DNA of 64,000 bases, taken from Acutalibacteraceae bacterium (GTDB lineage: Bacteria; Bacillota; Clostridia; Oscillospirales; Acutalibacteraceae). The position numbers and the translations under genes are program-made. Location of the stretch: assembly GCA_045534675.1 (NCBI GenBank), contig JAZSKE010000031.1, positions 20,043-84,042 on the forward strand, in the 5' to 3' direction. This document shows, in pieces, positions 8,101-56,455 of this stretch. Below the pieces are notes generated by a model that was given only the letters and a program-made list of their open reading frames with translations, was not told where the DNA came from and searched no databases. Position 1 is the stretch's first letter; every line of letters starts with the position of its first letter.

Positions 8101-10455
8101 ATGATTTTTTTGAACAAGGATAATGTTTTCCATCTGTCAACTAATAAGACAAGCTATGTTTTCAGAGCGCTTCCTACAGGTCAGCTTGAAGGAATGTACT
8201 ACGGCAGAAAAATCAGAAACTCAGATAATCTCGAATATCTTTATGATAAGCACGCTGCAGGCTACAGCAATGCTACGCCTTATACACAAAAGGATACCTC
8301 TCTTTCACTTGACCATATTGCTCTCGAGTACTCCGCCTACGGCAAAGGTGACTACAGACTTCCCGCTATGGAGCTTATGGCTGCTGACGGCAATTTCACT
8401 ACGGATTTTACCTTCAAGAGTGCTGCCGTAACAAAGGTGAAGCCCAAGCTCAAGGGTCTTCCCTCAAGCTACGGTGAAAGTGAAACCCTTACAGTTATTT
8501 TAGAGGATGCAAAGCTTGGCGCAGAGCTTCACCTTTTCTATACTGTTTTTGAAGAAAGCAACGTAATCACAAGAAGCACAAGACTTTATAACAAGAGCAA
8601 AAGCGAAATCAAAATCAACTCTCTTATGAGTATGCAGCTTGACCTTCAGAGAGGCAAGTACATTATGCTTACCTTTGACGGTGCATGGGCAAGAGAAAGA
8701 TATAAGCACGAGCGTGAACTCACAGCAGGCGAATGTTCTGTAGGCTCAATTTCAGGCTCGAGTTCAAACAGACACAACCCCTTCTTTGCTATCCGTGAAA
8801 TCGACACAACCGAACACAGCGGTAATTGCTACGGTTTCAACCTTGTGTATTCAGGCAACCACATAGCAAGAACCGAAATTTCAACTCACGGACTTCTCCG
8901 TATCCACAACGGTATCAATCCCTTTGAATTTCAGTGGAGCCTCGGAGAAGGGGAGTATTTCGATTCACCGGAAAGCGTAATGACCTTCAGTGACGAGGGT
9001 CTCAACGGCATGAGCCAGAATATGCACGCTTTTGTTAAGGAAAATATTGTAAGAGGCTATTGGAAGGATAAAGACAGACCCATACTTGTTAATAACTGGG
9101 AAGCAACAACCTTCAGCTTTAACGAAAAGAAAATCCTTGAAATTGCAGCTGCAACTAAGGAACTCGGCGCTGAAATGTTCGTTCTTGACGACGGATGGTT
9201 CGGCAAGCGCAACAACGACAAGGCAGGCCTCGGTGACTGGTATGTAAATATGAAGAAGCTCCCCAGCGGCATCAAGGGCCTTGCAGAAAAGGTTAACGCT
9301 ATGGGTCTCAAATTCGGTCTGTGGGTTGAGCCTGAAATGGTTAACCCTGATTCAGACCTTTACAGGGCGCATCCAGATTGGGCCGTAACAACTGATGTTT
9401 ATGAGCCTTCACAGGGCAGAAATCAGCTTATCCTTGACCTTACAAGAGATGATGTTAAGGAATACATAATCAACACAATGACAGATGTTTTCCGTTACGG
9501 CAACATCGAATATATCAAGTGGGATAACAACCGCCACTTCTCTGATGTTTTCTCAAGACGCAAGGACGCAAAGAGTGGCGAATTCTTCCACAGATACATT
9601 ATGGGTCTTTACGAAATCTGGGAGACACTTACAAACCGTTTCCCTGAGATTCTCTTTGAAGCTTGCTCAAGCGGCGGTAACAGATTTGACCTTGCCACCT
9701 TCTGCTATATGCCTCAGTGCTGGACAAGTGACAACACAGACCCCCTCGACAGAATGCACATTCAGTCAGGTACCTCCTACGGCTATCCTCAGTCTGTTAT
9801 GACAATGCACGTTGCTGCTGCAATCAGCTTCCCTGATTTCAGACCCAGCTCAATTGAGCAGAGATTTAATGTATCAGCCTTCGGTCTTTTAGGCTATGAG
9901 CTTGATGTAACAAATCTCAGTCAGTTTGACAGAGCAGCTGTTAAAAAGCAGATAGAGTACTATAAACAGCACAGACGCCTTCTTCAGTACGGTGTATATT
10001 CACGTATCGGCGACATCTTCAAGGATGACAGATGTATGTGGCAGATTACCGCTCCCGATAAGAGCGAAGCTATGTACGGCTATTTTGTTAACAGAATTAC
10101 TCCTAACTGGGGTAACGATGTTATCAAGTTTGTTTCACTGAATGAAAACTGGGACTATGACCTTAAAATCCGTACTCAGCTTCTTTCACTCAAGAATTTC
10201 GGTGATATGATTAATGTACCCATGCCGAAGAAGCTCAATGTTGAAGACGGCAAGTTCTTTGACTTTGTTTGTGAAATGGTTAAGCTTAAGAGTGAAAAGG
10301 AAGACTATATCATCGGCGGCGACGCTCTTATGCACTCAGGCTTCAAGCCTAAGCAGCCCTATAACTATTCAGGCTTCAAGTTCTCAGATTCAAGAATGAT
10401 TCTTGACAACGATTCAAGAATGTATTACATTAAAAAGACAGAAACAGCAGAATAA
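8101..10455 (+). CDS. Glycoside hydrolase family 36 (alpha-galactosidase or alpha-N-acetylgalactosaminidase)
   Basis: 784 aa with the GH36 hallmarks YIKWDNNR (nucleophile region) and EACSSGGNRFD (acid/base region), plus VLDDGWF. Confidence 0.85.
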   Translation: MIFLNKDNVFHLSTNKTSYVFRALPTGQLEGMYYGRKIRNSDNLEYLYDKHAAGYSNATPYTQKDTSLSLDHIALEYSAYGKGDYRLPAMELMAADGNFTTDFTFKSAAVTKVKPKLKGLPSSYGESETLTVILEDAKLGAELHLFYTVFEESNVITRSTRLYNKSKSEIKINSLMSMQLDLQRGKYIMLTFDGAWARERYKHERELTAGECSVGSISGSSSNRHNPFFAIREIDTTEHSGNCYGFNLVYSGNHIARTEISTHGLLRIHNGINPFEFQWSLGEGEYFDSPESVMTFSDEGLNGMSQNMHAFVKENIVRGYWKDKDRPILVNNWEATTFSFNEKKILEIAAATKELGAEMFVLDDGWFGKRNNDKAGLGDWYVNMKKLPSGIKGLAEKVNAMGLKFGLWVEPEMVNPDSDLYRAHPDWAVTTDVYEPSQGRNQLILDLTRDDVKEYIINTMTDVFRYGNIEYIKWDNNRHFSDVFSRRKDAKSGEFFHRYIMGLYEIWETLTNRFPEILFEACSSGGNRFDLATFCYMPQCWTSDNTDPLDRMHIQSGTSYGYPQSVMTMHVAAAISFPDFRPSSIEQRFNVSAFGLLGYELDVTNLSQFDRAAVKKQIEYYKQHRRLLQYGVYSRIGDIFKDDRCMWQITAPDKSEAMYGYFVNRITPNWGNDVIKFVSLNENWDYDLKIRTQLLSLKNFGDMINVPMPKKLNVEDGKFFDFVCEMVKLKSEKEDYIIGGDALMHSGFKPKQPYNYSGFKFSDSRMILDNDSRMYYIKKTETAE

Positions 10456-10480
10456 ATTTTAAATACAAAGGAAAGGTATT

Positions 10481-11620
10481 ATGATGTATCAAGGTAATAT
10501 TATGGCAGTAGAAATAGATAATGAAGTAGTCAAGGTCTGCAGATGTTTTGGCATTAAGGGCGAGCCTGTGGCTCAGAGTGTTTTCACTGACGGACACATC
10601 AACAGCACTCTGCTTCTTGAATTCAATGAAGACGGTCAGCTTAAGAAATACCTCGTGCAGGGTATCAATACACACGTTTTCAAAAACCCGGAAGAGCTTA
10701 TGGATAACATCGTAAGCGTAACAACATATCTCAGAAACAAAATTGTAGAAACGGGCGGCGACCCTGACAGAGAAACTCTCACTTTCCTTAAAGCAGAGGG
10801 CGGAAAGTACTATCATTATGAGGGAGAGAAGTGCTGGAGAATTTATAATTTCATCGATAACTCCCACACCTGCAACAAGATAGAAAACAAGGAGCTTTTT
10901 GAAAATGCAGGCCGTTCCTTCGGTAATTTCCAGAAGCACCTTACAGACTATCCCATGCACTCTCTTCATGAGACTATCAAGGATTTCCATAACACACCAA
11001 AGCGCTTTGACAATCTTGAAGCAGCAGTTGAAAACAATCTTTCGGGCAGAGCAGATACTGTTAAGGCCGATATTGAATTTGCTATGGCACGACGCGCTGA
11101 TTCAGGCAGACTTCTCAAACTTTATAAAGAGGGTCTTATTCCTCTTCGTGTAACACATAACGATACAAAGCTCAACAACATTCTCTTTGACGATGAAACC
11201 AATGAAGGCATCTGCGTAATTGACCTTGATACAATTATGCCCGGCTTTTCACTCTATGATTTCGGTGATGCAATCCGTTTCGGCGGCAACACCACGAGAG
11301 AGGATGACGATAATCTCGATAATGTAAAGATTTCACTTGAGCTTTTTGAAAGCTATGCCGAAGGCTTCCTTTCCGCTTGTGCAAAGGCACTCACAATGGC
11401 AGAGGTTGAAAATCTTGCCTTCTCAGCTATGCTTATGACACTTGAGTGCGGCATACGTTTCCTTACAGACTATATTGACGGTGACGTTTATTTCAGAACT
11501 CATTATGCAGAGCATAATCTTGTAAGAGCAAGAAATCAGTTCAAACTCGTTTATGAAATTGAACAGCACATGGATGAGATGAACGAAATCGTTATGAATA
11601 TTTATAACAAATATATCTGA
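10481..11620 (+). CDS. APH-fold sugar 1-kinase resembling N-acetylhexosamine 1-kinase (NahK/LnpB)
   Basis: DGHINST, PLRVTHNDTKLNNILFD, VIDLDTIMPG, YDFGDAIRFG and EHNLVRARNQFKLV closely follow the pattern I recall for Bifidobacterium NahK. Confidence 0.7.
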   Translation: MMYQGNIMAVEIDNEVVKVCRCFGIKGEPVAQSVFTDGHINSTLLLEFNEDGQLKKYLVQGINTHVFKNPEELMDNIVSVTTYLRNKIVETGGDPDRETLTFLKAEGGKYYHYEGEKCWRIYNFIDNSHTCNKIENKELFENAGRSFGNFQKHLTDYPMHSLHETIKDFHNTPKRFDNLEAAVENNLSGRADTVKADIEFAMARRADSGRLLKLYKEGLIPLRVTHNDTKLNNILFDDETNEGICVIDLDTIMPGFSLYDFGDAIRFGGNTTREDDDNLDNVKISLELFESYAEGFLSACAKALTMAEVENLAFSAMLMTLECGIRFLTDYIDGDVYFRTHYAEHNLVRARNQFKLVYEIEQHMDEMNEIVMNIYNKYI

Positions 11621-11709: not shown

Positions 11710-11738
11710 TTGACAAATCGTCTAAAAACATGTATAAT
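11710..11738 (+). promoter_or_regulatory. Near-consensus sigma-A promoter of the orphan unit
   Basis: TTGACA, 17-nt spacer ending in TG, TATAAT. Confidence 0.6.
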
Positions 11739-11744
11739 GAAGAC

Positions 11745-12110
11745 GAAATAAAAGAAAGGGGTGTTACCAATGTACTGTTTAGTTTAATTCGCAGAGTGTG
11801 AATTATCCTGCTTTGCGGATAAGGAATCCGTAAAGTGAGATTTAAATTAAATAGTGAAAGGTAAGCTTATTACAAGCGAAAACAATTAAGATATTTCATA
11901 CGATGCGTGATCGGATTATATATAAGCCTTATATGAGCGGATGTTAACAGAGGTGTGATTTGTATGTTTTGCAAACAGCCTGAATTTATTCGTTATTCGA
12001 AATCAAATCGCATACATAAAGAAGGCATAAAATTTAATATTTATCTATAACTGAAAAAAATTATTTTAATAAGAAAACGAGGCGGTGAAGATACTGCTTC
12101 GTTTTTTCGT
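11745..12110 (+). ncRNA. Orphan promoter-to-terminator unit (~365 nt) with no long ORF; candidate sRNA or cis-regulatory leader
   Basis: Bounded by the consensus promoter (11710-11738) and an intrinsic terminator (12074-12110). The only coding potential is a 28-codon sORF at 11964-12050 with a GAGGTG RBS. Confidence 0.3.
12074..12110 (+). terminator. Intrinsic terminator or attenuator
   Basis: AAAACGAGGC-loop-GCTTCGTTTT stem with a G-U pair valid only on the + strand, followed by a T-run. Confidence 0.65.
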
Positions 12111-12140: not shown

Positions 12141-12169
12141 TTGACAAAAATGCAGTGAGGTAGTATAAT
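12141..12169 (+). promoter_or_regulatory. Consensus sigma-A promoter for the 1313-aa gene
   Basis: TTGACA, 17-nt spacer, TATAAT. Confidence 0.6.
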
Positions 12170-12206: not shown

Positions 12207-15200
12207 ATGAATCAGTTTTTTTATGATGAAATTAAATGCAGTGTCACGGCTTTAAAGAAGGCGGGTATTGACCCTACACTTTATCTGGATGATGAAATTA
12301 TAATTGTTTCAGATGAGCATTCACTTGCCGCTTATCTTGCAGGCTTTTTCACTGTAGGTAATAAAAAATCACCTTATGTCAATGTTATTACAGGCGCAAA
12401 GCCTCAAAACGCTGACATTTATTCTTATTTGTCTGCTGAGGTCAAGACTCAGCTTGTTCTCTGTGAGAATTATGATGAGTTCATAAACAGGGGAACAGGC
12501 ATAGACAAAAAGCACATATACTACTTTGCTAATTTACAGCTGCCTGAATATGAGAAAGCAGACTTTGTTTCTGCGAAAAAGGCTGACCTTGAAAGATGGC
12601 TGGATTACTGCAGTGAAAATGAAGGTTCCTTTGTTTTTGTACCCGTATTCAACTTCTCAAAGCCTTTTGAAGAGGGCGTAATCAGTATTTCTGAAAGAGA
12701 AATGGAGGCTGTAGCAGGTTCTGATGCAGACTTTTCTGCCGGAAGACTTCTTCTTGAACTTGAAGAAATTTGCCGCAAGCATTTCAAAGAGAAGAATATA
12801 CCAATGAATATTGTCCGCTTTGATAATATTTTCGGACCTATGGTAAAGGATACAACTAAGCTCGGCATTGATAAAATTATAGGTGAGCTTGCCCAAAACA
12901 ATAAAATTCTCTTCAAAAAGTCCGACAGCATCACTCACTACACGGGCTGTTATATCCGTGAAGCAATTACTGCGGTTTATGCAGTAAGCGTAATAGGAAA
13001 AAACGGTAACATCTATAATGCGGCTAATTATAACTTTACCATACACGATGTTAAGGATGCTCTTTATACTCATTTTGCTTCAAAAAATCCCGTGTGTGAT
13101 TTTGACGATGATATGATGGACGGTTGGGTTACTCAGAAGAACTATGAGTGCCTTGCCAATCTGAAGATACAGTCTCTGGGTTGGGCGGAAGAAACACCCT
13201 TCGGTGAAGCAATTTACAGAACTGCCCTTATTACGGTTGAGCAGGAATATAAGGGCGACTTTTATGTGGACATCTATCAGGGTAAGATTGAGCGCATCAA
13301 GCGTATTGAAATGGATATAATGCGCGAAATTGACCGCATATGCCGTGAAAATAATATTAACTATTTCCTTGTCGGCGGTTCACTTTTAGGTGCAATAAGA
13401 CACAAGGGATTTATCCCCTGGGACGATGATATTGATATCGGTATGCTTCGTGAGGATTTTGAAAAGTTCCGCAGACTCTGTCCTAAGGTGCTTCCCTCAC
13501 ACCTGAGCTATCAGTCATATACAGATGAGCCTACATCTCACTATATCTTTGACAAGGTGCGTCTTAAGGACACTTATTTCAGCACAAAGTTCTCCAATAA
13601 ATTCATTGATATAGAAAATGGTATTTTCATCGATATCCTTGTTTATGACAGAACTGCCAATTCCGACTTTTTCCAGAAGCTTCATATAAATTCAATTCGC
13701 TTTTTCCGCCGTCTTATCAATATCCGTTGGGTCGGCAAGGCAAGACGAGGCATACACTACACTGCATCTAAGATAATGCTTCCCATAATGAAAAAGGTGC
13801 CGTTCCTTACCTATCACTACTTCTTTGAAAAGGCACTTCAGATGTTTGATTTTAAGAAAAACAGCAAATATCTTATTGACGGTGTAGGTCAGAACCTTGA
13901 AAAAGGCCCCTTCCCCATGGATTGGTTTGAGGAGCTTATTGATGTACCTTATGAAGATATGATTTTCAAGGCACCCAAAGCCTATGATGCATATCTCAGA
14001 CACTGGTACGGCAACAGATATATGGAATTGCTGCCTCTTTCGTCAAGAAATTCGGGTCACGCCCTTGCAAGACTTGACCTTGGCAGATATCTCTATAAAG
14101 ATACGGAAAATATGCCCGTACGTGAGGTTGACCTTAACGGAGAGCTTTTTGAAAAGCTTGTTTATGAAAACAATCAGGACGGCATGGACGAAAACTTCCT
14201 TGATGAGATTTCACTTATTGACAAAGAAATTCTTATGAATAATATGAAGCACGGAGCCCTTAACAAGAGTGAAATCAACATTATAGGTGACGAACACACT
14301 CTTGCTGCTTACCTTGCCGGATATTATATGTACCGTAACAAGGCGCAGGGAGAGGGCAGTGTCAATGTTATACTTGAAGGTAAGTGCCGTAACAAAAAAC
14401 TCTATGACCAGATAAGTGAAGAATTTGACGGTAACGGTCTTTTCAATGTTTATGACAGTATTGACAAATACTACAGTATGAGTAAGCCAAATTCCAAGAA
14501 GGTTTATTTCTATCTTGCAAATCTTCAGCTTGATGAATACGCAGACTATGAATTTGTAAGAGAAAAGAAGAAAAATCTTCGCAAGTGGCTTGCACTTTCA
14601 AGAAACTCAAGCGGCAGATTTGTCTTTATACCCTTTTTCAATTTTGCAAAGCCCTTTGACGGTGGCGTTGCCGCAATATCAGAGCGCGAGGTTGAATCCA
14701 TAGTGCTTTATGAAAAGGATTTCCGTCAAGGCAGAATACTTCTTGAGCTTGAGGATGTATGCAGAAAATCCTTCTCATATACAAAAAATCCACTTAATGT
14801 TGTTCGCTTTGACAATATTTTCGGTCCCTTTGTTGAGGATACATCAAAGCTCGGTTTCGGCAGTGTACTCAAAGAGCTTAAAGAAAATAACTCAATTACC
14901 TTCAGAAACAGTGACAGCATTGTTAATTATTCAGCATGCTACATCCGTCAGGCGGTTACTGCAGTGCATTGCGTTGCACTCAAGGGCAGAATAGGCAATA
15001 TTTATAATGCGGCAAATTATAACTTCACACTTCACGATATCAAAACACTTCTCTACGGTGCTTTTGCTGAGAGAAATCCTGCAGTGAGCTTTGTTAACGA
15101 TATTGATAGAGTGCCGCAGGAAAAACTGTATGAGCGTCTCGGTAACCTCAAACTCAGAGATATCGGCTGGACTGAGGTGACACCTCTTGATGAAGCACTT

Positions 15201-16148
15201 GCAAGAACAGTTTATGCTGACCTTGAAAGCAGCGGAGATGACAAGATAAGCCAGACACTCTATCAGGGTAAGCTTAAGAAAATCCGCCAGCTTCAGCTTG
15301 AAATCATAGCCGATGTTGACCGTATATGCCGCAATAACAATATCAGATATTTCCTTGTGGGCGGCTCACTTTTGGGTGCAGTCAAATACGGAGGCTACAT
15401 TCCTTGGGAGGATACAATTGATATAGGTATGTTCCGCGAGGATTATGAAAAATTCAAGGTTGTTTGTCCTAAGGAGCTTTCAGATAAGCTGAAATATCAG
15501 AGCTATGAAAAAGGCTCATCAACTCATTTTATACACGATAAAATCCGTCTCAATGATACAGGCTTCTTCACCGCCGTTTCAGAAAATCATAAGCTTGTTG
15601 ACCTTGGTCTGTTTATTAATGTTTATGTTTACGATAAAACGGCAGGTACTACAATCGGCAGACAGCTTCACTCCTTTACGGTGCAAAATCTCAGAAGACT
15701 TATTAATCTTCGTTGGCAGAATAAGGCTGTACCCGGACCTCACTACAGACTTTATAAGCTTATTCTTCCCTTTGTCAGAATGGTACCCTTTAACCTTTAT
15801 CATGTTATGCTTGATAAGGTGCTTCGCCGTTACAGCAAGAAGGAAAACTGTGTCTTCCTCATTGACGGTGAGGGATTAAGCCTTCACAAGGGTGCTTTCC
15901 CCGCAAAGTGGTTCTATAATCTTGGTGAAATGGAATTTGAAGGTGTCAAGCTTCCCGTACCCGAGTATTATGACGATTATCTCAAGCACTTCTATGGCGA
16001 AAACTATATGAAGACAATTCCTGAGAGTAAGCGTCACAGCGGCAGAAAAATTCTTCGTATCGACCTTGGTAAATATCTCTATGACGAAACGGCAAATGCT
16101 GTAGCTCACAAGAAAAATGCCAAAGGCGAACTCTTTGAGGAATTATAA
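12207..16148 (+). CDS. Tandem-duplicated [degenerate extended-SDR-like domain + LicD-family phosphotransferase domain] x2 protein
   Basis: 1313 aa. The two halves (about aa 1-652 and 653-1313) align end to end. Each half has an RFDNIFGP / IYNAANYNFT epimerase-like core and a YFLVGGSLLGA...PW(DDD/EDT)IDIGM LicD signature. No TM segments are visible. Confidence 0.8.
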   Translation: MNQFFYDEIKCSVTALKKAGIDPTLYLDDEIIIVSDEHSLAAYLAGFFTVGNKKSPYVNVITGAKPQNADIYSYLSAEVKTQLVLCENYDEFINRGTGIDKKHIYYFANLQLPEYEKADFVSAKKADLERWLDYCSENEGSFVFVPVFNFSKPFEEGVISISEREMEAVAGSDADFSAGRLLLELEEICRKHFKEKNIPMNIVRFDNIFGPMVKDTTKLGIDKIIGELAQNNKILFKKSDSITHYTGCYIREAITAVYAVSVIGKNGNIYNAANYNFTIHDVKDALYTHFASKNPVCDFDDDMMDGWVTQKNYECLANLKIQSLGWAEETPFGEAIYRTALITVEQEYKGDFYVDIYQGKIERIKRIEMDIMREIDRICRENNINYFLVGGSLLGAIRHKGFIPWDDDIDIGMLREDFEKFRRLCPKVLPSHLSYQSYTDEPTSHYIFDKVRLKDTYFSTKFSNKFIDIENGIFIDILVYDRTANSDFFQKLHINSIRFFRRLINIRWVGKARRGIHYTASKIMLPIMKKVPFLTYHYFFEKALQMFDFKKNSKYLIDGVGQNLEKGPFPMDWFEELIDVPYEDMIFKAPKAYDAYLRHWYGNRYMELLPLSSRNSGHALARLDLGRYLYKDTENMPVREVDLNGELFEKLVYENNQDGMDENFLDEISLIDKEILMNNMKHGALNKSEINIIGDEHTLAAYLAGYYMYRNKAQGEGSVNVILEGKCRNKKLYDQISEEFDGNGLFNVYDSIDKYYSMSKPNSKKVYFYLANLQLDEYADYEFVREKKKNLRKWLALSRNSSGRFVFIPFFNFAKPFDGGVAAISEREVESIVLYEKDFRQGRILLELEDVCRKSFSYTKNPLNVVRFDNIFGPFVEDTSKLGFGSVLKELKENNSITFRNSDSIVNYSACYIRQAVTAVHCVALKGRIGNIYNAANYNFTLHDIKTLLYGAFAERNPAVSFVNDIDRVPQEKLYERLGNLKLRDIGWTEVTPLDEALARTVYADLESSGDDKISQTLYQGKLKKIRQLQLEIIADVDRICRNNNIRYFLVGGSLLGAVKYGGYIPWEDTIDIGMFREDYEKFKVVCPKELSDKLKYQSYEKGSSTHFIHDKIRLNDTGFFTAVSENHKLVDLGLFINVYVYDKTAGTTIGRQLHSFTVQNLRRLINLRWQNKAVPGPHYRLYKLILPFVRMVPFNLYHVMLDKVLRRYSKKENCVFLIDGEGLSLHKGAFPAKWFYNLGEMEFEGVKLPVPEYYDDYLKHFYGENYMKTIPESKRHSGRKILRIDLGKYLYDETANAVAHKKNAKGELFEEL

Positions 16149-16160
16149 TCTATTCAGATG

Positions 16161-16200
16161 TTACCCTGCAGGGATTATCCTTGCAGGGTAATTTGATATT
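16161..16200 (+). terminator. Intrinsic terminator after the LicD-type gene
   Basis: TTACCCTGCA-11 nt-TGCAGGGTAA followed by TTTGATATTT. Confidence 0.7.
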
Positions 16201-45516: not shown

Positions 45517-47070
45517 TTGGATAAAAGTCAGATATTAACTGTCAGAAATCTTGCTGAATATTCAGTAGAAAAATTTGCAGAAAAAGATTTCTGCCGTTTC
45601 ATCAGAGACGGTGAGATTTTTGCTAAATCATATAAAGAGTTTTATGAAGATGCACTGAGCATCTGCAGATACATCCGATCAAAGAGCAAGGAAAAAATGA
45701 ATATCGGCTTCATCGGAAAAACAAGCTACGAATATATAGCTTGCCTTACAGGTATGATTTTCAGCGGCAATACTGTTGTACCCTTTGCGCCTGATATTAC
45801 TGTTGAGGAAGCTGTTGAACTTTTTGACGATGCTGATATTGAGATTCTTTTCTGCGAAGAAGAATTTGCGGAAAAGGCACGCATGATTAAAAGAAACTTC
45901 GGTGGTCTCAGAGATATAATTTCTCTTGGCAATTGGCAGTGGTTTGAGAATATATATAAAGAGTTTTCATCTGACTCAGCCTATGCGGCTCTTTCAGATG
46001 TTGAGGTTGAACCTGAGAGATGTGCTCTTATTATCTATACCTCCGGCACAACAGGCAAGAGAAAGGGTGTTATGCTTTCTCAGAATAACCTTGCAGCTAA
46101 CTCAACCTACGATGCTTACGCATTGGATAACGATGATGTCAGCTTCTCAATTTTGCCTATGCATCATGTTTTCTGTTATGCCTGTGATGTACTTAAGACT
46201 CTCTACGACGGCGGTACACTTTGCCTTAACGGTCAGCTTCAGAATTTATATAAGCATATGCTTATGTTTGAGCCTACAATTATGAGAATAGTACCTGCTA
46301 TCTGCAAGTCAATTCTCACTAAGATTAAAATCACCGAAAGACAGAATCCTACTCTTTCAAAAAGAGAGGCTGCCGAAAAGGTTGTGGGCAGAAACTTCAG
46401 ACGCATGATAGCCGGCAGTGCCTTTTTGAGCGGTGCGGTTATTGACGAGTTTGAGCAGTACGGCATCACTGCAAGACAGGGCTACGGCATGAGCGAGTGC
46501 AGTCCCAGAATTACTACATCAGATTTTTCTGATAAACTTAAATATTCCAACGGCAGACTTACAGGTGTTGATGAAGTAAGAAGTGTCGACGGCGAAATTC
46601 AGGTTAAGGGTCCCAGCGTAATGCTCGGATATTATAAGATGCCTGAAGAAACAAAGGCTGCTTTCACTGAGGACGGTTGGCTTCACACAGGTGACCTGGG
46701 TTATGTTCAAGACGGACATATTTTCCTTGTGGGCAGAAAAAAGAATCTGATTATTCTTTCCAACGGCGAAAACATCTCTCCCGAAGAAATTGAGAACCGT
46801 TTTGCCGATGAAGGTATAATAAAAGAAATCGTTGTTTTGGCAGAAAACGATAAGCTTGTTGCTGAGATTTTCCCTGACGAAGTGCTTGCCGAAACTTTAG
46901 GTATCACAGATATTGAGGGCGTTATTTCTGCTGTTATAGATAAGGTGAATATGATTTCAGCTTCTGACAGACAGATTTATTCCTTCCGTCTTCGTGAGAA
47001 GCCCTTTGAGAGAACCTCAACAGGCAAGATAAAGAGAACCGAATTTTATTTTAAGGGTAATAAAAATTAA
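45517..47070 (+). CDS. Stand-alone adenylate-forming enzyme (acyl-AMP/acyl-CoA ligase-like)
   Basis: TTG start after AAGGAAG. AMP-binding motifs IIYTSGTTGKRKGV, YGMSEC, TGDLGY and a terminal TSTGKIKR. Confidence 0.88.
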   Translation: MDKSQILTVRNLAEYSVEKFAEKDFCRFIRDGEIFAKSYKEFYEDALSICRYIRSKSKEKMNIGFIGKTSYEYIACLTGMIFSGNTVVPFAPDITVEEAVELFDDADIEILFCEEEFAEKARMIKRNFGGLRDIISLGNWQWFENIYKEFSSDSAYAALSDVEVEPERCALIIYTSGTTGKRKGVMLSQNNLAANSTYDAYALDNDDVSFSILPMHHVFCYACDVLKTLYDGGTLCLNGQLQNLYKHMLMFEPTIMRIVPAICKSILTKIKITERQNPTLSKREAAEKVVGRNFRRMIAGSAFLSGAVIDEFEQYGITARQGYGMSECSPRITTSDFSDKLKYSNGRLTGVDEVRSVDGEIQVKGPSVMLGYYKMPEETKAAFTEDGWLHTGDLGYVQDGHIFLVGRKKNLIILSNGENISPEEIENRFADEGIIKEIVVLAENDKLVAEIFPDEVLAETLGITDIEGVISAVIDKVNMISASDRQIYSFRLREKPFERTSTGKIKRTEFYFKGNKN

Positions 47071-47096
47071 AATTTCCCGAAGGAGGACCTAACGTT

Positions 47097-48641
47097 ATGG
47101 TTGAAGTATTTTTACCTACAGGTGAAAAAGTACACGCTTATCCCATTACCAGTTCACAGAAGATGATGTATCTTATGTCGCTTAAATACGGCTCAGGCTA
47201 TCCTGTTAACAATATCGGATTTGGCTTTTATTGGCAGGGTGAAATGGACAAGGCTGTTATGAAAAAAGCTATTTACGAAGCGATTGAACGTTGTGACACA
47301 ATGAGACTTCGTTTTGTTATGGGCAAGAAGCTTCAGCTTCTTCAGTATGTAACATATAACAGTGAGCTTGTTGTTGAAGATTGGGACTTCAGTGATATGA
47401 CAATCGATGAGGCTGAGGAAAAGATACTTGCTTTCTCAAGAGAGAGCATTCCCATGTATAAGTGCGAGCTTCATAAAATTGCCCTTGTTGATTTTGCTGA
47501 CGGATATCACGGCATCTTTATGAGAATACAGCACCTTGCAATGGATGCTTATTCACTCAAGGTCTTCGTCAATGATATTATTGATATCTATATGCACAGA
47601 ACAAGAGGTACCGGATATCCCAAGCCTATGCGTCCCTACATACCCGTACTTGAAGATGAGCTTGCTTATGAAACATCTAAGCAGCATAAAGATGACCAGA
47701 TGTATTGGTACAACTCACTTGCTCTGAGTACTGAGCCTATCTTCACAGATTTCATGCTTGATAACAGACTTAAACAGCAGCAGATTAAGGAACCGGACAA
47801 GCGTTATGCTGACATTCACTCAGGTCTTCCCGATGCTTCAGGCTTCAAGTTCAGCATGAGCGCAGAAGACAGCAAAAAGATAATGGATATGTGCGAGGCA
47901 AACAATCTTTCCATCTTCTCATATCTTTCAATGGGTGTTCGCACCGCTCTTTCATGCTTCAATGATAATCAGGAAGATGTTTCCTTCAAGATGATTATCA
48001 ACAGACGCGGTACTATTGCCGAAAAGAAGTCAGGCGGTATCCGTATCAACTTCCTTCCTATGAGAAGCATTGTCAAGCCTACCGAAACTTTTATCGATGC
48101 AGTCAGAGGCATTTCTGAGATTCAGAACGAAATGTATCAGCATTCAAGACTTGCATTCCTTGAAACACTTGCTGAAAGACACAAGTCAATGTCAAAGGAT
48201 GCTAAGTTTGACTCAACATATGACAGCTTCGGTCTTTCATATCAGCCCCATGTCAAGATGAAAGCCATTGACGAGCAGATGGAAAAGACAGCACGTACTA
48301 TATGGTACAACAACGGTGCTATTATGATTCCTCTTTATGTAACTGTTGTTCACAGACAAGGTGATGCAGGCTTTGATTTCATCTGCGAATACAGATCAGA
48401 GCAGCAGGCTGAATATGACCTCAGAGTACTTTGCTCAAAAATTGAAAAAGCTATGGTTCTCGGTGCAGAGAATCCCCATATAACAGTACAGGAAGTACTT
48501 GATAAAATTGCGTTAACTGATGAAGAAAGGAACGGTAAACCCCAATGCAAACAATCGAAAAACTTATTGACATCCTTGCAAACTACGTGGAAGCTGACGA
48601 AATCAAGGCTGAAGACAATTTTAAGTCTGATCTCGGCATGA
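47097..48641 (+). CDS. Stand-alone condensation (C) domain protein
   Basis: C1-like motif YPITSSQKMMYLM and a catalytic HHxxxDG-type variant, IQHLAMDAYS. About 480 aa of C-domain length. The last ~32 codons overlap the carrier-protein gene. Confidence 0.75.
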   Translation: MVEVFLPTGEKVHAYPITSSQKMMYLMSLKYGSGYPVNNIGFGFYWQGEMDKAVMKKAIYEAIERCDTMRLRFVMGKKLQLLQYVTYNSELVVEDWDFSDMTIDEAEEKILAFSRESIPMYKCELHKIALVDFADGYHGIFMRIQHLAMDAYSLKVFVNDIIDIYMHRTRGTGYPKPMRPYIPVLEDELAYETSKQHKDDQMYWYNSLALSTEPIFTDFMLDNRLKQQQIKEPDKRYADIHSGLPDASGFKFSMSAEDSKKIMDMCEANNLSIFSYLSMGVRTALSCFNDNQEDVSFKMIINRRGTIAEKKSGGIRINFLPMRSIVKPTETFIDAVRGISEIQNEMYQHSRLAFLETLAERHKSMSKDAKFDSTYDSFGLSYQPHVKMKAIDEQMEKTARTIWYNNGAIMIPLYVTVVHRQGDAGFDFICEYRSEQQAEYDLRVLCSKIEKAMVLGAENPHITVQEVLDKIALTDEERNGKPQCKQSKNLLTSLQTTWKLTKSRLKTILSLISA

Positions 48642-52206: not shown

Positions 52207-53571
52207 TTACATATTGCCGAAGATTTCTCTAATCTCAGCAGCTCTGCCGCAGGTCATTTTGCCTTCGGGACAAGCTCCGTGTACATAGCAGCTGGGTCCG
52301 TAAAGCGAGAAGAGGTCAGGTGAAATCTTGCGAAGCTTCTTAAGGAAATCGTTAGCAAAGAGCTGAATTTCCCACTGAGCTCTTGTGCATGAGCGAAGTC
52401 TGAAGAAAAGAAGCATCTCACGGGCGTTCATTGTTGTTACAATGTCAAGAGTGTTACCGCTGAGTACGCAGTATATAAGCACATTATCGTCATATCCCTT
52501 TGTTTTAAGCTCGTTATAAAGCTCTTTCATATCAGCGAAAGCCTCGTTATAAATTGCGAGTGCATCACTGTCAGCCTTTATTGTGTCAGGGATAACATAT
52601 GAGCTTCTGTCTGCTTTCATAAGACTCGGAATGCAAATGCTCTGTATTCTGTGTCTTGCAAAATGTGTCAGACAAGCAAGTGAAACCTTGTTGAATTTAA
52701 CTGTGCAGGTGTAGCTTTCAAGCGCTCTGGGTCTTGATGATGCTGCAAGCTTTTTAAATACAGCTTTAATGTTTTCCTTATCGCTCACGATTTTTTTTGC
52801 AGCAGCAGGGGAGTAGCCTGCCTCATAAAGTGCGCACAAGGCTACATTCTTTTCGCCGTCGGGCGTATATGCAAGAATTTCGCAAAGCTCATCGGATGAC
52901 TTGTCATCACCGTTTTCAAAGCCGTAATCAAGTTCATCGTTATATTTCTGACCTTTAAGCTCAAAGTCAATAAACAGACCGGGTGCAATAGCCTTACACT
53001 GCTCAAGCAGTGACAGACCTATTTCATATATCTCTTTGATTTTTCTGCCTCTGCCGTAAATCATGGCATTAAGCACATTTATAAGCTCTCTGCCGCCAAG
53101 TGAACAGAAAAAGTTTGAATAGAAGCAGTAGGGCAGCACAAAGCGTGCATCCTCTTTCGGAATTTCTTTTTCGGTCAGTGCTGAGTAAGCGGCAAAAAGC
53201 TTGTCCATTACGGCAGTGTACTTTGCCATATCTTTATCGTCAGCGAATGCGGGAACAAGATAACCGCAATCTGCAAAGTCGACATAGCGTCTTGATTTAA
53301 CGGTGAATGAAGCAAGTCTGAATTCAATCATAAACTGCTCAACAACAACGCTGACATTTTCAAAAGCAAGGTTGAAGAATATGTGTTCAATTGTTGAGGT
53401 GTGACCTGATTTTGTTACTTTGCCGATAAGTTTTGTGTTTTTTTCTTCGTCGTGGCTTCTCTCAAAAATTTCAAGAGCAGTGCCGTTCTGTGTGGAAATT
53501 CGTCCCGATGCGGCGCAGACCTCCTGCTTTACATCTGAACAGCCTATTACAAAAGCACCGTGTTTATCCAT
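52207..53571 (-). CDS. Double-length, internally duplicated ThyX-family (FAD-dependent thymidylate synthase-like) protein
   Basis: 454 aa. The first half has SGHTSTIEH and FRLASFTVKSRRY. The second half has FARHRIQSICIPS (RHRxxS). Confidence 0.7.
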   Translation of the reverse strand: MDKHGAFVIGCSDVKQEVCAASGRISTQNGTALEIFERSHDEEKNTKLIGKVTKSGHTSTIEHIFFNLAFENVSVVVEQFMIEFRLASFTVKSRRYVDFADCGYLVPAFADDKDMAKYTAVMDKLFAAYSALTEKEIPKEDARFVLPYCFYSNFFCSLGGRELINVLNAMIYGRGRKIKEIYEIGLSLLEQCKAIAPGLFIDFELKGQKYNDELDYGFENGDDKSSDELCEILAYTPDGEKNVALCALYEAGYSPAAAKKIVSDKENIKAVFKKLAASSRPRALESYTCTVKFNKVSLACLTHFARHRIQSICIPSLMKADRSSYVIPDTIKADSDALAIYNEAFADMKELYNELKTKGYDDNVLIYCVLSGNTLDIVTTMNAREMLLFFRLRSCTRAQWEIQLFANDFLKKLRKISPDLFSLYGPSCYVHGACPEGKMTCGRAAEIREIFGNM

Positions 53572-54119: not shown

Positions 54120-54794
54120 ATGGGTAAAATGATTGTTATTGACGGCCTTGACGGAAGCGGTAAAGCCACCCAGGCAGAGATGCTTAAAAACTATCTTTCA
54201 TCAAGAGGCTGCAGCACCTATACACTTGACCTGCCCTTTTATTCGGATGCGTCAAGCACTCTTGTGAAAATGTATCTTGGCGGTGAGCTTGGTGACAATC
54301 CTTCCGATGTCAACGCCTACGCGGCATCTACCTTCTATGCAGCCGACAGATATGCAAGCTATAAAAAGCACTGGCAGAAGGAATATGAAAGCGAAAAAAT
54401 TGTTGTTGCAAACAGATATACAACTTCAAACGCCTGCCACCAGATGACAAAACTCCCTAAGGACAAATGGGATGAATATTTAAGTTGGCTTTTTGAGTTT
54501 GAATACGGCAAGCTTGGCATACCCGAGCCTGACTGTGTTATCTTTCTTGATATGCCCGTTGATATTTCACAAAAACTGTTGTTAAAACGCTATAAAGGTG
54601 ACGAAAATAAAAAAGATGTGCATGAAAGAGATGTCAGGTATCTCTTTGACTGTCACGAAGCTGCAGTGTATGCTGCCGAAAAATTAGGTTGGCACAGAGT
54701 AATCTGCGGTAAAGACGGTGAACCTCTTACAATAGACGAAATTTCGGCTGAGGTCTGCCGTATAGCGGAAAGGGAGCTTTTAGGAAATGACTGA
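54120..54794 (+). CDS. Thymidylate kinase-family protein
   Basis: P-loop VIDGLDGSGKATQ and an ANRYTTSNACHQ region corresponding to the Tmk DRY...AYQ motif. Confidence 0.7.
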   Translation: MGKMIVIDGLDGSGKATQAEMLKNYLSSRGCSTYTLDLPFYSDASSTLVKMYLGGELGDNPSDVNAYAASTFYAADRYASYKKHWQKEYESEKIVVANRYTTSNACHQMTKLPKDKWDEYLSWLFEFEYGKLGIPEPDCVIFLDMPVDISQKLLLKRYKGDENKKDVHERDVRYLFDCHEAAVYAAEKLGWHRVICGKDGEPLTIDEISAEVCRIAERELLGND

Positions 54795-55683
54795 ACTACA
54801 CACCGTAACTCTCGGTGATAAAACATGGATAAACGAAATACTTTCAAAGGTGCCGTTTTTTACCTGTGAATATCCATTCGGTAATGTGTTTTCCTACGGC
54901 GCTAAAATGGAAATTAAGGTTGGTAATATTGCAGGCTGTCTTGTCACCAAGTGTATATATGATGACAGCATTATGTACTGCTGTCCCATTGGCGACGGCG
55001 ATATGAAAATGGCAATTGAATTTATCTTAGACGATGCTCGCAAAGACGGCAGAGATTTTGAAATATTCGGTATTTCACCTGATTCTGCTGAATTTATTTC
55101 AGAAAATTTTCAGGGCGTTTTTGATATTTCTCTTCAGAGGAATACCTTCGACTATATTTACAGCAGTGAAGATCTGATAAATCTTGCCGGTAAAAAATAT
55201 CAGCCCAAGCGTAACCATATCTCGTTTTTTATGAGAAATAACAATTGGAGCTACGAAAGAATAACAAGAGAGAATATTCCCGAGTGCCTTGAAATGAGCA
55301 AGGTCTGGCTTGAGGGCACTCTTGAAGAATACAGAGAAGACCTTGAAGCCGAGCTTAAAATAATTAGAAGAGTTTTTGATAACTATGAGGAACTTGGCTA
55401 TGTGGGCGGACTTTTAAGAGCAGACGGCAAGGTTATTGCCTACACAATGGGAGAGAGAATGACCGATGAAATGTTCTGTGTTCACATTGAAAAGGCCTTC
55501 TCCGATATCAGAGGGGCATACCCTATGATAAATCAGCAGTTTGTTAAAAACGAACTGTCAGATTACAAATATATTAACCGTGAGGACGATACGGGTGCTG
55601 AAAATCTCAGAAAAGCCAAGCTGAGCTATTACCCTGTCATCCTTGCAGAAAAGTATGAGGCGAAGCTGAAAAATGCTAATTAA
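54787..55683 (+). CDS. DUF2156 protein (stand-alone homolog of the MprF aminoacyl-PG synthase C-terminal domain)
   Basis: AGKKYQPKRNHISFF plus tandem GNAT-like halves; no membrane domain. Overlaps the neighbouring genes at both ends. Confidence 0.6.
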   Translation: MTELHTVTLGDKTWINEILSKVPFFTCEYPFGNVFSYGAKMEIKVGNIAGCLVTKCIYDDSIMYCCPIGDGDMKMAIEFILDDARKDGRDFEIFGISPDSAEFISENFQGVFDISLQRNTFDYIYSSEDLINLAGKKYQPKRNHISFFMRNNNWSYERITRENIPECLEMSKVWLEGTLEEYREDLEAELKIIRRVFDNYEELGYVGGLLRADGKVIAYTMGERMTDEMFCVHIEKAFSDIRGAYPMINQQFVKNELSDYKYINREDDTGAENLRKAKLSYYPVILAEKYEAKLKNAN

Positions 55684-56455
55684 AGCAGATGAAAAACACA
55701 TCCCGTCGCTGATAAAACTGTGGCACGATGTTTTCGGTGACAGTGAAGAATATATAAAGCTCTTTTTCAGAAAGGCTTACTATGACGGCGAGTGCTTTGC
55801 CGAAACTCATGACGGTGAGTTTATCAGTGCCTTTTATCTTCTTAAATGCAGCGTCAGGTACGCGGGCAAGGTTTATGAGGGCAGATATCTTTATGCCGCC
55901 GCAACTCTCCCCGAGTACCGCGGAAAAGGGCTTATGTCAAAGCTTATAGGTGAAGCTACAGCTTACTGTAAAGATATGGGTCTTGATTTTATAGCCCTGG
56001 TGCCTGCCGGTGACAGCCTTTACGGATATTACGGCAGATACGGCTTTCAGGAGGCTATGTATAAATACAGATTTGTAATAAACAATGAGTGTGTCACTCT
56101 TCGTGCTTATCGTGAGCTTGAAAACGCCGACGAATTTTATAAAATAAGAAGCTCATCGGACGGTGTTCTTGTTTACGGAAAAACCGGTTCGGATTATGCT
56201 TATGATTGTCTCAAATTTTCTGATAACAAAATTATTTCTGTCAGTAATGGCAGTTATTACATTGACGGTGAAGAATTGTTTGTCGGTGATGATGAAGACG
56301 CTGCCTTAAACTTTTTAAACTCACTTGGCGGGGAAAGAGTTGTCTATTCCGACAAGCCTTTGATGAATGCCGAAAAGGTGCGCAACGGAATGTTATACAC
56401 TTTTAATAATGAACTTAAAAACAAAGAAATTTATATGAATATAGCATTGGACTAA
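55673..56455 (+). CDS. GNAT-family N-acetyltransferase
   Basis: Acetyl-CoA motif A LPEYRGKGLMSKLI. Confidence 0.75.
   Translation: MLIKADEKHIPSLIKLWHDVFGDSEEYIKLFFRKAYYDGECFAETHDGEFISAFYLLKCSVRYAGKVYEGRYLYAAATLPEYRGKGLMSKLIGEATAYCKDMGLDFIALVPAGDSLYGYYGRYGFQEAMYKYRFVINNECVTLRAYRELENADEFYKIRSSSDGVLVYGKTGSDYAYDCLKFSDNKIISVSNGSYYIDGEELFVGDDEDAALNFLNSLGGERVVYSDKPLMNAEKVRNGMLYTFNNELKNKEIYMNIALD

Follow-up and report, generated by a model that had tools for sequence, protein, structure and literature searches.

We have analysed a gene for a 1313-amino-acid (aa) protein, found in a 64,000-nucleotide stretch of DNA from an Acutalibacteraceae bacterium (contig JAZSKE010000031.1; hereafter, the window). 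The protein consists of two modules, each pairing a degenerate extended short-chain dehydrogenase/reductase (SDR) domain, or pseudo-SDR, with a LicD domain. We conclude that it is probably a ribitol- or polyol-phosphate transferase, organised as a covalent version of the human fukutin-related protein (FKRP) dimer and having one catalytic site. The kind of enzyme, a LicD-family phosphotransferase, is known. What is new is the architecture, a fused and presumably half-silenced pseudo-dimer with pseudo-SDR domains. LicD-family enzymes decorate bacterial surface polymers with phosphocholine and polyol-phosphates. Their human members, fukutin and FKRP, build a ribitol-phosphate bridge, and its loss causes muscular dystrophy. 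To our knowledge, no LicD-family protein other than FKRP has a solved structure, and the bacterial members have for the most part not been studied.

The gene and its parts are listed in Table 1. Comparison of residues 1-652 with residues 653-1313 produced 655 aligned columns, with 45% identity, 5 gaps, and an E-value of 0. Hence, as a preliminary description of this DNA had stated, the two halves can be aligned over their whole length. All of the motifs quoted in that description were also found, including the shared motif that closes both halves. The Pfam LicD profile (PF04991) matches the protein at residues 379-602 and 1041-1264 (E 3.6e-72, 243 bits). Taken separately, the matches score 143 bits for module 1 and 105 bits (E 6.9e-30) for module 2, where the cut-off is 22.6 bits, and both span profile positions 1-227 of 227. 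Membership of the LicD family is thus secure for both C-terminal domains. Together with the SDR fold assigned to the N-terminal domain by Foldseek (see below), this bears out the four-domain anatomy first proposed. Module 1 ends with GELFEK and module 2 with GELFEE; most single-module relatives likewise end in this tail, [RK]GEL[FY]E. Module 2 has also kept its own start methionine, M660, preceded by a linker of 7 residues (MDENFLDE, compared with MNQFFYDE at the start of module 1). The shared C-terminal tail, and the retained methionine, indicate that a whole ancestral gene was duplicated. The largest 19-residue Kyte-Doolittle mean is 1.18 and the protein contains no hydrophobic segment. It is therefore expected to be soluble.

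Our central observation concerns the two LicD active sites. FKRP has a nucleotidyltransferase fold, an hG[GS] motif at G344-S346, and three carboxylates, D362 and D364 of a [DE]x[DE] motif and, as the third, D416 (PMC6965139). Alanine substitution of D360, D362, D364, or D416 is, in each case, inactivating (PMC6965139). The catalytic domains of FKRP (PDB 6kaj), a CDP-ribitol:ribitol-phosphate transferase, and of the window protein are homologous (phmmer E 2.7e-7, profile E 1.9e-10, Foldseek E 4e-7), with identity of about 14% outside the motif block. FKRP was also the only significant Foldseek family for an AlphaFold2 (AF2) model of LicD2 (E 4e-7). In HMMER alignments, IPW-D360-Y-D362-V-D364 of FKRP falls on IPW-D406-D-D408-I-D410 of module 1. 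MAFFT --add places FKRP HLHV-D416-LWPF on GIFI-D476-ILVY; the FKRP sequence used here agrees with the segments printed by HMMER. In module 1, GGS at positions 390-392, R398, H399, D406, D408, D410, and D476 are invariant in 19/19 full-length orthologs.

Module 2 is different. Among the same 19 orthologs, the counterpart of R398 (position 1060) is lysine in 15 and arginine in 4, and that of H399 (position 1061) is tyrosine in 15 and something else in 4. Position 1068, equivalent to D406, is glutamate in all 19. Position 1070, equivalent to D408 and FKRP D362, is threonine (16), serine (2), or alanine (1). The D410 counterpart, 1072, is aspartate in 15, glutamate in 3, and tyrosine in 1. Finally, position 1138, matching D476 and FKRP D416, is asparagine in 17 and lysine in 2. 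The window protein itself carries K1060, Y1061, E1068, T1070, and N1138, and its active-site strings read PWDDDIDIGM in module 1 and PWEDTIDIGM in module 2. The change from DDD to EDT had been recognised in the preliminary description, but its extent and consistency, with further losses across the 19 orthologs, had been missed. By comparison, among 84 other LicD domains, 78-83 conserve each of the six positions, and 83/84 have aspartate at the D476 equivalent. A survey of 96 homologs, with 123 LicD domains between them, showed a failed triad in these module-2 domains and, besides them, in just two unrelated cases. Each of 57 single-module relatives (57/57) keeps the LicD catalytic set. Residues of the LicD2 scaffold are retained (GGS, W, D1069, R1077, G1134, D1143, G1264, and R1276). 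Hence, module 1 has what is expected of an active LicD enzyme, while module 2 belongs to the family by fold and homology only. Because module 2 lacks equivalents of FKRP D362 and D416, the arginine-histidine pair, and D406, the protein most likely has a single catalytic centre, in LicD1. We infer that LicD2 is a pseudo-LicD, inactive as a catalyst.

Loss of these residues is not accompanied by loss of the gene. Intact, full-length orthologs occur in 18 clusters, drawn from independent NCBI, ENA, and Logan assemblies, and are 1311-1330 aa long with 57-98% identity. Mean pairwise identity, for the 19 full-length sequences, is 0.88 for LicD1, 0.69 for LicD2, 0.68 for SDR2, and 0.61 for SDR1. Nei-Gojobori dN/dS ratios, which are approximate because dS is near saturation, are 0.07-0.15 for SDR1, 0.02-0.06 for LicD1, 0.04-0.14 for SDR2, and 0.05-0.16 for LicD2. 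With values of 0.02-0.16 in all four domains, the dead domains appear to be maintained by selection. A neighbour-joining tree joins every module-1 sequence to the closest single-module relative (P0187) and places the module-2 sequences, on longer branches, in a sister clade. A single duplication-fusion, after which module 2 changed faster, would fit this pattern.

We turn now to the N-terminal domain of each module. In the AF2 model of module 1, this domain is predicted with a predicted local distance difference test score (pLDDT) of about 85-95. Foldseek matched it to many SDR nucleotide-sugar enzymes with a probability of 1.0 and template modelling (TM) scores of 0.64-0.77, normalised to target length. 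The matches include UDP-GlcA 4-epimerase (6zla, E 2e-13, TM 0.70-0.75), the CDP-glucitol-forming reductase HS5.17 (8v4h/8v4g, E 9e-13, TM 0.72-0.77), and RmlB. Sequence profiles are less generous. The Pfam Epimerase model (PF01370) is below threshold, with E 0.033 and 14 bits where 20.9 are needed; the dTDP-glucose dehydratase model TIGR01181 matches at E 5e-8, in the C-terminal third only; and profile matches to SDRs in the PDB (E 3e-6 to 1e-3) are confined to the C-terminal half of the pseudo-SDR. The substrate-binding-half motifs of SDRs, VRFDNIFGP and GNIYNAANYNFT (GNIYNAANY), are kept in both modules. The nicotinamide cofactor and catalytic motifs are not, as had been noted from the start. 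Degenerate loop stretches occupy residues 31-46 (IIIVSDEHSLAAYLAG) and 690-705 (INIIGDEHTLAAYLAG), and the NAD loop position reads V-S-D-E-H-S-L-A-A in module 1 and I-G-D-E-H-T-L-A-A in module 2. Similarly, the position of catalytic YxxxK is DFSAGR in module 1 (F176xxxR180) and DFRQGR in module 2; that is, F...R. In short, the domain has the Rossmann-type fold of an extended SDR, and has neither the Pfam score, nor the TGxxGxxG loop, nor S...YxxxK. Canonical NAD(P) binding by the pseudo-SDR domains is, on these motifs, predicted to be impossible. An Asp-Glu-His triad sits in the former NAD loop, at residues 36-38 (window 12312-12320) and 695-697 (window 14289-14297). It is common to both modules, to the orthologs checked, and to several close single-module relatives (as CDEH, SDEH, or CDDH). 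Such conservation suggests that the old cofactor pocket may have been re-used for a new ligand or metal, rather than merely lost.

To place the module among its relatives, the pseudo-SDR domain was used in an exhaustive profile search against 1.84 billion representative proteins. There were 268 matches at E ≤ 1e-10. The best 150 of these 268 include 57 proteins, of about 580-810 aa and at least 57 clusters at 50% identity, with an SDR-like N-terminal domain followed by LicD. GxxGxxG and YxxxK are missing from every one of them, and the LicD set is always intact. Since 57/57 single-module relatives lack the same SDR motifs, the degeneration predates the duplication, as the preliminary description had argued. 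The doubled form is represented, among the same best 150 of 268, by one cluster that stands for the entire double-module clade. Note that a word-indexed search with the pseudo-SDR profile returned fragments only; it was the exhaustive search that revealed the family. When the module profile was run against GTDB genomes, no close ortholog was present among the matches listed, of which there were at least 600. The literature searched gave no account of an SDR-LicD fusion, whether single or in tandem. By this comparison, the degenerate SDR is ancestral to a sizeable family, uncharacterised in that literature, of which the window protein is a rare derived form. The preliminary description had allowed that the architecture might be a common and already characterised enzyme class; the single module (~640 aa) is indeed common, but uncharacterised, and the doubled form is rare.

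The origin of the pseudo-SDR is suggested by genes next to the single-module relatives. One relative from Ruminococcus (P0022, annotated 'LicD family protein') is encoded in a teichoic-acid-like operon where an ABC-2 permease, a TagH-like ATPase, a ribitol-5-phosphate cytidylyltransferase-like gene, and an SDR precede the fusion gene. The N-terminal domain of P0022 aligns with this upstream SDR over its whole length (335 aa, E 1e-19). SDR1 of the window protein also matches the stand-alone SDRs of the relatives' operons (E 3e-11 and 1e-13). In the stand-alone neighbour, both the loop (TGGAGFIG) and YxxxK are intact; among PDB entries, HS5.17 matches it best (8v4g, E 3e-36). HS5.17 reduces CDP-6-fructose to CDP-6-glucitol (PMC10918830). 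The alignments with this HS5.17-like neighbour mark the pseudo-SDR as a paralog of a CDP-sugar- or alditol-handling reductase that has been captured by LicD. Judged by sequence, then, the pseudo-SDR is descended from a CDP-sugar/alditol-type reductase encoded beside LicD genes in related operons.

Neighbouring genes also hint at the donor. P0187 (658 aa, 60% identity to module 1) is encoded at the syntenic site, directly upstream of rnj-gdpP-rplI-dnaB-tilS-hpt. It divergently adjoins genes for TarI, a D-ribitol-5-phosphate cytidylyltransferase (NF001183, 354 bits, cut-off 166), and TarJ, a ribulose-5-phosphate reductase (PDB 6xh9, E 7e-128). TarI and TarJ make CDP-ribitol. In a third relative, P0020, the operon consists of LicD, the fusion gene, an IspD-like gene, and an SDR. 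We consider the donor most likely to be CDP-ribitol; otherwise, it may be another CDP-polyol or CDP-choline.

These results can be combined in a model. The protein would be a soluble, cytoplasmic LicD-family phosphotransferase, derived from an ancestral gene, for a protein of ~650 aa made of a dead extended SDR plus LicD, that was duplicated head to tail with fusion of the copies. LicD1 would be the sole enzyme, using D408, D410, and D476 with a divalent metal, together with D406, R398, and H399. In the predicted reaction, which releases CMP, an alcohol-phosphate passes from a CDP-activated donor to an acceptor hydroxyl, either on a cell-envelope glycan or on a lipid-linked precursor. Ribitol-phosphate would be the group transferred, at the cytoplasmic face; transfer of some other polyol-phosphate, or of phosphocholine, is less likely. 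Module 2 would serve as a non-catalytic partner, and the arrangement as an intramolecular version of the dimer probably formed by single-module relatives. In FKRP, the functional unit is a dimer, and the dead domain of one chain helps to bind the acceptor. By analogy, pseudo-SDR 2 and pseudo-LicD 2 may supply surfaces for binding of acceptor, product, or donor to the LicD1 site. With FKRP-like packing, pseudo-SDR 2 would complete the LicD1 site, leaving pseudo-SDR 1 to face the dead LicD2 site. That SDR1 is the least constrained domain fits weakly with the latter position. Both the pseudo-dimer mechanism and the packing of modules are thus inferred from FKRP. A bolder version, which we regard as a long shot, makes the protein a LicD-based processive polymerase, distinct from TagF-like enzymes, where the dead LicD2 site and pseudo-SDRs hold the chain end, or a second CDP-ribitol, and feed LicD1. 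If so, one catalytic centre and one holding site would build a poly(polyol-phosphate) chain. No Pfam match to the TagF-like polymerase domain (PF04464) was found at E up to 1.

Several points limit the case for a single-site, FKRP-like ribitol-phosphate transferase. The LicD parts of both AF2 models have moderate confidence only (pLDDT 50-80). Equivalence of D476 and FKRP D416 rests on MAFFT, with the FKRP sequence checked in part, and HMMER local alignments skip this stretch. Chained alignments, used to project CDP-binding residues of HS5.17 onto the pseudo-SDR, tentatively pair R233 with Y245, D212 with D222, and R208 with K218. Neither tarI/tarJ, nor another CDP-donor gene, was found within 10 kb of 8/8 double-module loci; hence, the donor is deduced only from relatives of 35-60% identity. 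Lastly, residual or altered catalysis in module 2 is possible, as hGGS, D1069, mostly D1072, and D1143 are kept. This last point bears on two other explanations. The preliminary description had envisaged that both LicDs are active and make two successive phosphodiester-linked additions, as fukutin then FKRP do, or polymerise a teichoic-acid-like chain. In keeping with this, both LicDs are full-length, above the Pfam threshold, and under purifying selection, and GGS, D1069, and D1072 remain in module 2. Proteins with tandem LicDs also exist, including some with both catalytic sets intact (GT2-LicD-LicD) and one, P0039, that joins NTP-transferase and iron-dependent alcohol dehydrogenase (Fe-ADH) domains to two LicDs. 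However, module 2 is without both of the aspartates that are each essential in FKRP, without the arginine-histidine pair, and without D406. The changes are consistent over 19 orthologs, position 1072 is even tyrosine in one, and comparable failures of the triad are confined to the two unrelated cases mentioned above. The idea lacks support and we judge it very doubtful. Alternatively, module 2 could be catalytic with new chemistry or a new donor, either as a phosphodiesterase or editing activity, or as a transferase using E1068, D1069, and D1072 in another metal geometry. Invariance of E1068 and D1069, and near invariance of T1070, suggests a re-tooled and non-random site, and purifying selection on LicD2 equals that on SDR2 in strength. 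Against this, the LicD family offers no precedent, and loss of the third carboxylate and arginine-histidine pair removes most known metal and nucleotide ligands. Furthermore, positions 1072 (D/E/Y) and 1138 (N/K) vary, unlike a catalytic residue. We therefore view new chemistry in module 2 as doubtful.

A separate question is whether a single active site transfers phosphocholine, glycerol-phosphate, or hexitol-phosphate in place of ribitol-phosphate. The best NCBIfam match is the Mf1 cholinephosphotransferase (NF045866), at 135.6 bits and so below the equivalog cut-off of 225. Distant relatives lie beside an HS5.17-like SDR and a cytidylyltransferase, a pair known for CDP-glucitol and predicted for CDP-mannitol, and no tarIJ is linked to the double-module gene. 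On the other hand, bona fide homologs of TarI and TarJ accompany the closest relative at the syntenic locus. Genes of the licA/licB/licC type were not seen, and the adjacent kinase is not a choline kinase. A different donor is thus possible, though less likely than CDP-ribitol, the donor in the reading we prefer. The doubled gene could also be an artefact of assembly or annotation, or a duplicate decaying to a pseudogene, given that the source is an uncultured metagenome-assembled genome and that the catalytic residues of module 2 are lost. This explanation is effectively refuted: a frame of 1311-1330 aa stays intact throughout 18 clusters, which reach as low as 57% identity and come from at least 3 genomic contexts, and dN/dS is at most 0.16 in every domain.

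The protein can also be compared with known systems. Like FKRP, module 1 keeps hGGS, W-D-x-D-x-D, and the third aspartate, and has an N-terminal nucleotide-sugar-enzyme fold without a catalytic motif, followed by a C-terminal LicD. The predicted donor, CDP-ribitol, is also the same, as judged from tarIJ linkage in the closest relative. However, the FKRP stem has a glycosyltransferase type A fold, resembling ppGalNAcT, whereas here the fold is that of an SDR. FKRP is also anchored in the membrane, carries a zinc-finger loop, and works in the lumen of the Golgi. Furthermore, the proposed dimer of the window protein would be made covalent by gene fusion, with one catalytic site predicted to be dead. 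Among bacterial LicDs, those of Streptococcus pneumoniae (LicD1/LicD2), Haemophilus influenzae (LicD), and Mycoplasma fermentans (Mf1) share PF04991, a CDP-activated donor, and the cytoplasmic face. These are single-domain phosphocholine transferases, of about 270 aa, encoded in lic operons with licA/B/C, while the window protein has two pseudo-SDRs and a second, dead LicD, with no lic genes nearby. Single-module proteins of Clostridia, Lachnospiraceae, and Ruminococcus (P0187, P0020, and P0022) are closer, and each module in the window is a full copy of their plan. They share the degenerate glycine loop, the absence of YxxxK, RFDNIFGP and GNIYN, and the GEL[FY]E tail. They differ in having one module, an intact LicD site, and usually a place beside CDP-polyol synthesis genes; at one such locus (L084), TagGH-like exporter genes adjoin. 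[quoted passage not shown] Both have an unusual N-terminal helix before strand 1, but HS5.17 is an active enzyme with an NADP-binding loop and Y167/K171.

Other tandem-LicD proteins came to light during the analysis. They are GT2-LicD-LicD proteins of about 900 aa (P0023, P0034-P0036, and P0038) and P0039, of 1158 aa, where NTP-transferase and Fe-ADH (glycerol-phosphate dehydrogenase-like) domains precede LicD-LicD. As in the window protein, two LicDs share a polypeptide, but they are adjacent, with no SDR-like domain between. In the GT2-LicD-LicD proteins, nothing is missing from the catalytic set of either LicD, which points to two functional active sites. The tandem-LicD proteins could be genuine two-step transferases, or could unite donor synthesis and transfer by fusion.

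The results define a large, uncharacterised family in gut and rumen Firmicutes, where LicD is permanently joined to a dead nucleotide-sugar dehydrogenase fold. This design mirrors the dead glycosyltransferase stem and LicD of FKRP. One clade seems to have turned the presumed dimer into a single chain, with one active site silenced, so providing a natural experiment on recruitment of pseudoenzymes for substrate handling. The family is relevant to cell-wall polymer synthesis in abundant, uncultured gut Clostridia.

Table 1. Positions, in the window, of the double-module gene, its domains, key codons, and flanking signals.
Feature	Position	Strand	Details
Sigma-A-type promoter	12141..12169	+	TTGACA-17-TATAAT; 12/12 consensus positions
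Coding sequence	12207..16148	+	ATG start; 1313 aa; two complete [pseudo-SDR + LicD] modules fused head-to-tail
Pseudo-SDR domain 1 (aa 1-355)	12207..13271	+	Extended-SDR fold; S35-D36-E37-H38 for glycine-rich NAD loop; F176...R180 for YxxxK
LicD domain 1 (aa 356-652), predicted catalytically competent	13272..14162	+	Pfam LicD 379-602; tail GELFEK aa 645-650
Codons D406-D407-D408-I409-D410, predicted metal and donor site	13422..13436	+	FKRP D360-Y-D362-V-D364; HMMER alignments to FKRP 6kaj
Codon D476, predicted third catalytic carboxylate	13632..13634	+	FKRP D416; MAFFT --add
Linker YENNQDG and pseudo-SDR domain 2 (aa 653-1017)	14163..15257	+	D695-E696-H697 for glycine loop
LicD domain 2 (aa 1018-1313), putative pseudo-LicD	15258..16145	+	Fold kept, active site dismantled; tail GELFEE
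Codons E1068-D1069-T1070-I1071-D1072, degenerate DxDxD site	15408..15422	+	19 orthologs
Codon N1138, replacing third catalytic Asp	15618..15620	+	N17/K2 among 19 orthologs
Intrinsic terminator-like hairpin	16160..16192	+	15-bp stem, 7 GC pairs, T-rich tail; 12 nt after stop

The gene had been described as monocistronic, with its own promoter and terminator, and the signals in Table 1 agree. The arrangement is monocistronic at every orthologous locus examined. The promoter block (ATTGACAAA...GTAGTATAAT) is invariant in 8 orthologous loci (L001, L003, and L087-L092), where surrounding DNA is otherwise unalignable. This invariance spans at least 3 unrelated genomic contexts and extends to orthologs with as little as 57% protein identity. 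Promoter, gene, and terminator seem to travel together as one self-contained unit. Its earlier placement in an accessory segment is right in so far as the locus varies among orthologs of 57-87% identity, but the flanks, which contain rplA/J/L, rnj, gdpP, rplI, and dnaB, are core. Indeed, the 64-kb window as a whole is core genome, with ftsQ, ftsZ, secE, nusG, rplK/A/J/L, rnj, gdpP, rplI, dnaB, tilS, ftsH, uppP, ftsK, and others. Throughout the annotated window, no cytidylyltransferase or other CDP-donor gene was found, which extends an earlier remark that none lies nearby.

Upstream of the gene, window positions 8101-11620 (+) encode a GH36 glycosidase (784 aa) followed by an N-acetylhexosamine 1-kinase homolog (379 aa). 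The kinase belongs to the aminoglycoside phosphotransferase (APH) family and was considered as a LicA-like choline kinase. This was ruled out: it is a close homolog of Bifidobacterium NahK (PDB 4ocu, E 1.7e-87) and is paired with the glycosidase. Lying between rplL and the LicD gene, the two have the look of an inserted pair for GalNAc/GlcNAc salvage. Orthologs of 71-87% identity keep the pair in synteny, with an extra CBM9-like gene in one case, and it is absent from the L092, L003, and L087-L090 contexts.

A small transcription unit (window 11710-12107, +) lies between the NahK-like gene and the promoter of the LicD gene. It has a perfect consensus promoter (11710-11738), a strong Shine-Dalgarno sequence, and a 5-codon mini-ORF at 11771-11788 (ATG TAC TGT TTA GTT TAA). 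About 300 nucleotides follow, ending with a terminator-like hairpin at 12072-12107; the RNA fold has a z-score of -3.8. The unit is kept with the gene in an 84% ortholog (L092), in another genomic context, and only its promoter/mini-ORF end is recognisably kept in an 87% ortholog (L091). It has no Rfam match, and neither did an Rfam scan of the gene flanks give any. A metagenome pattern scan gave one further real copy only. The unit may be a small RNA, or a leader-peptide element, travelling with the gene.

Elsewhere in the window, a 454-aa protein (52207-53571, -) has two stretches of Thy1 (ThyX, flavin-dependent thymidylate synthase). Being roughly double the length of a usual ThyX, it may have arisen, like the LicD protein, by internal duplication or fusion. 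At 54787-56455 (+), a stand-alone LPG_synthase_C protein of 298 aa (aminoacyl-phosphatidylglycerol synthase C-terminal-type), with no membrane domain, is followed by a GNAT acetyltransferase. Finally, positions 45517-48641 (+) encode a stand-alone AMP-binding protein (517 aa) and then a stand-alone condensation-domain protein (514 aa), a minimal pair resembling nonribosomal peptide synthetase components amid housekeeping genes.

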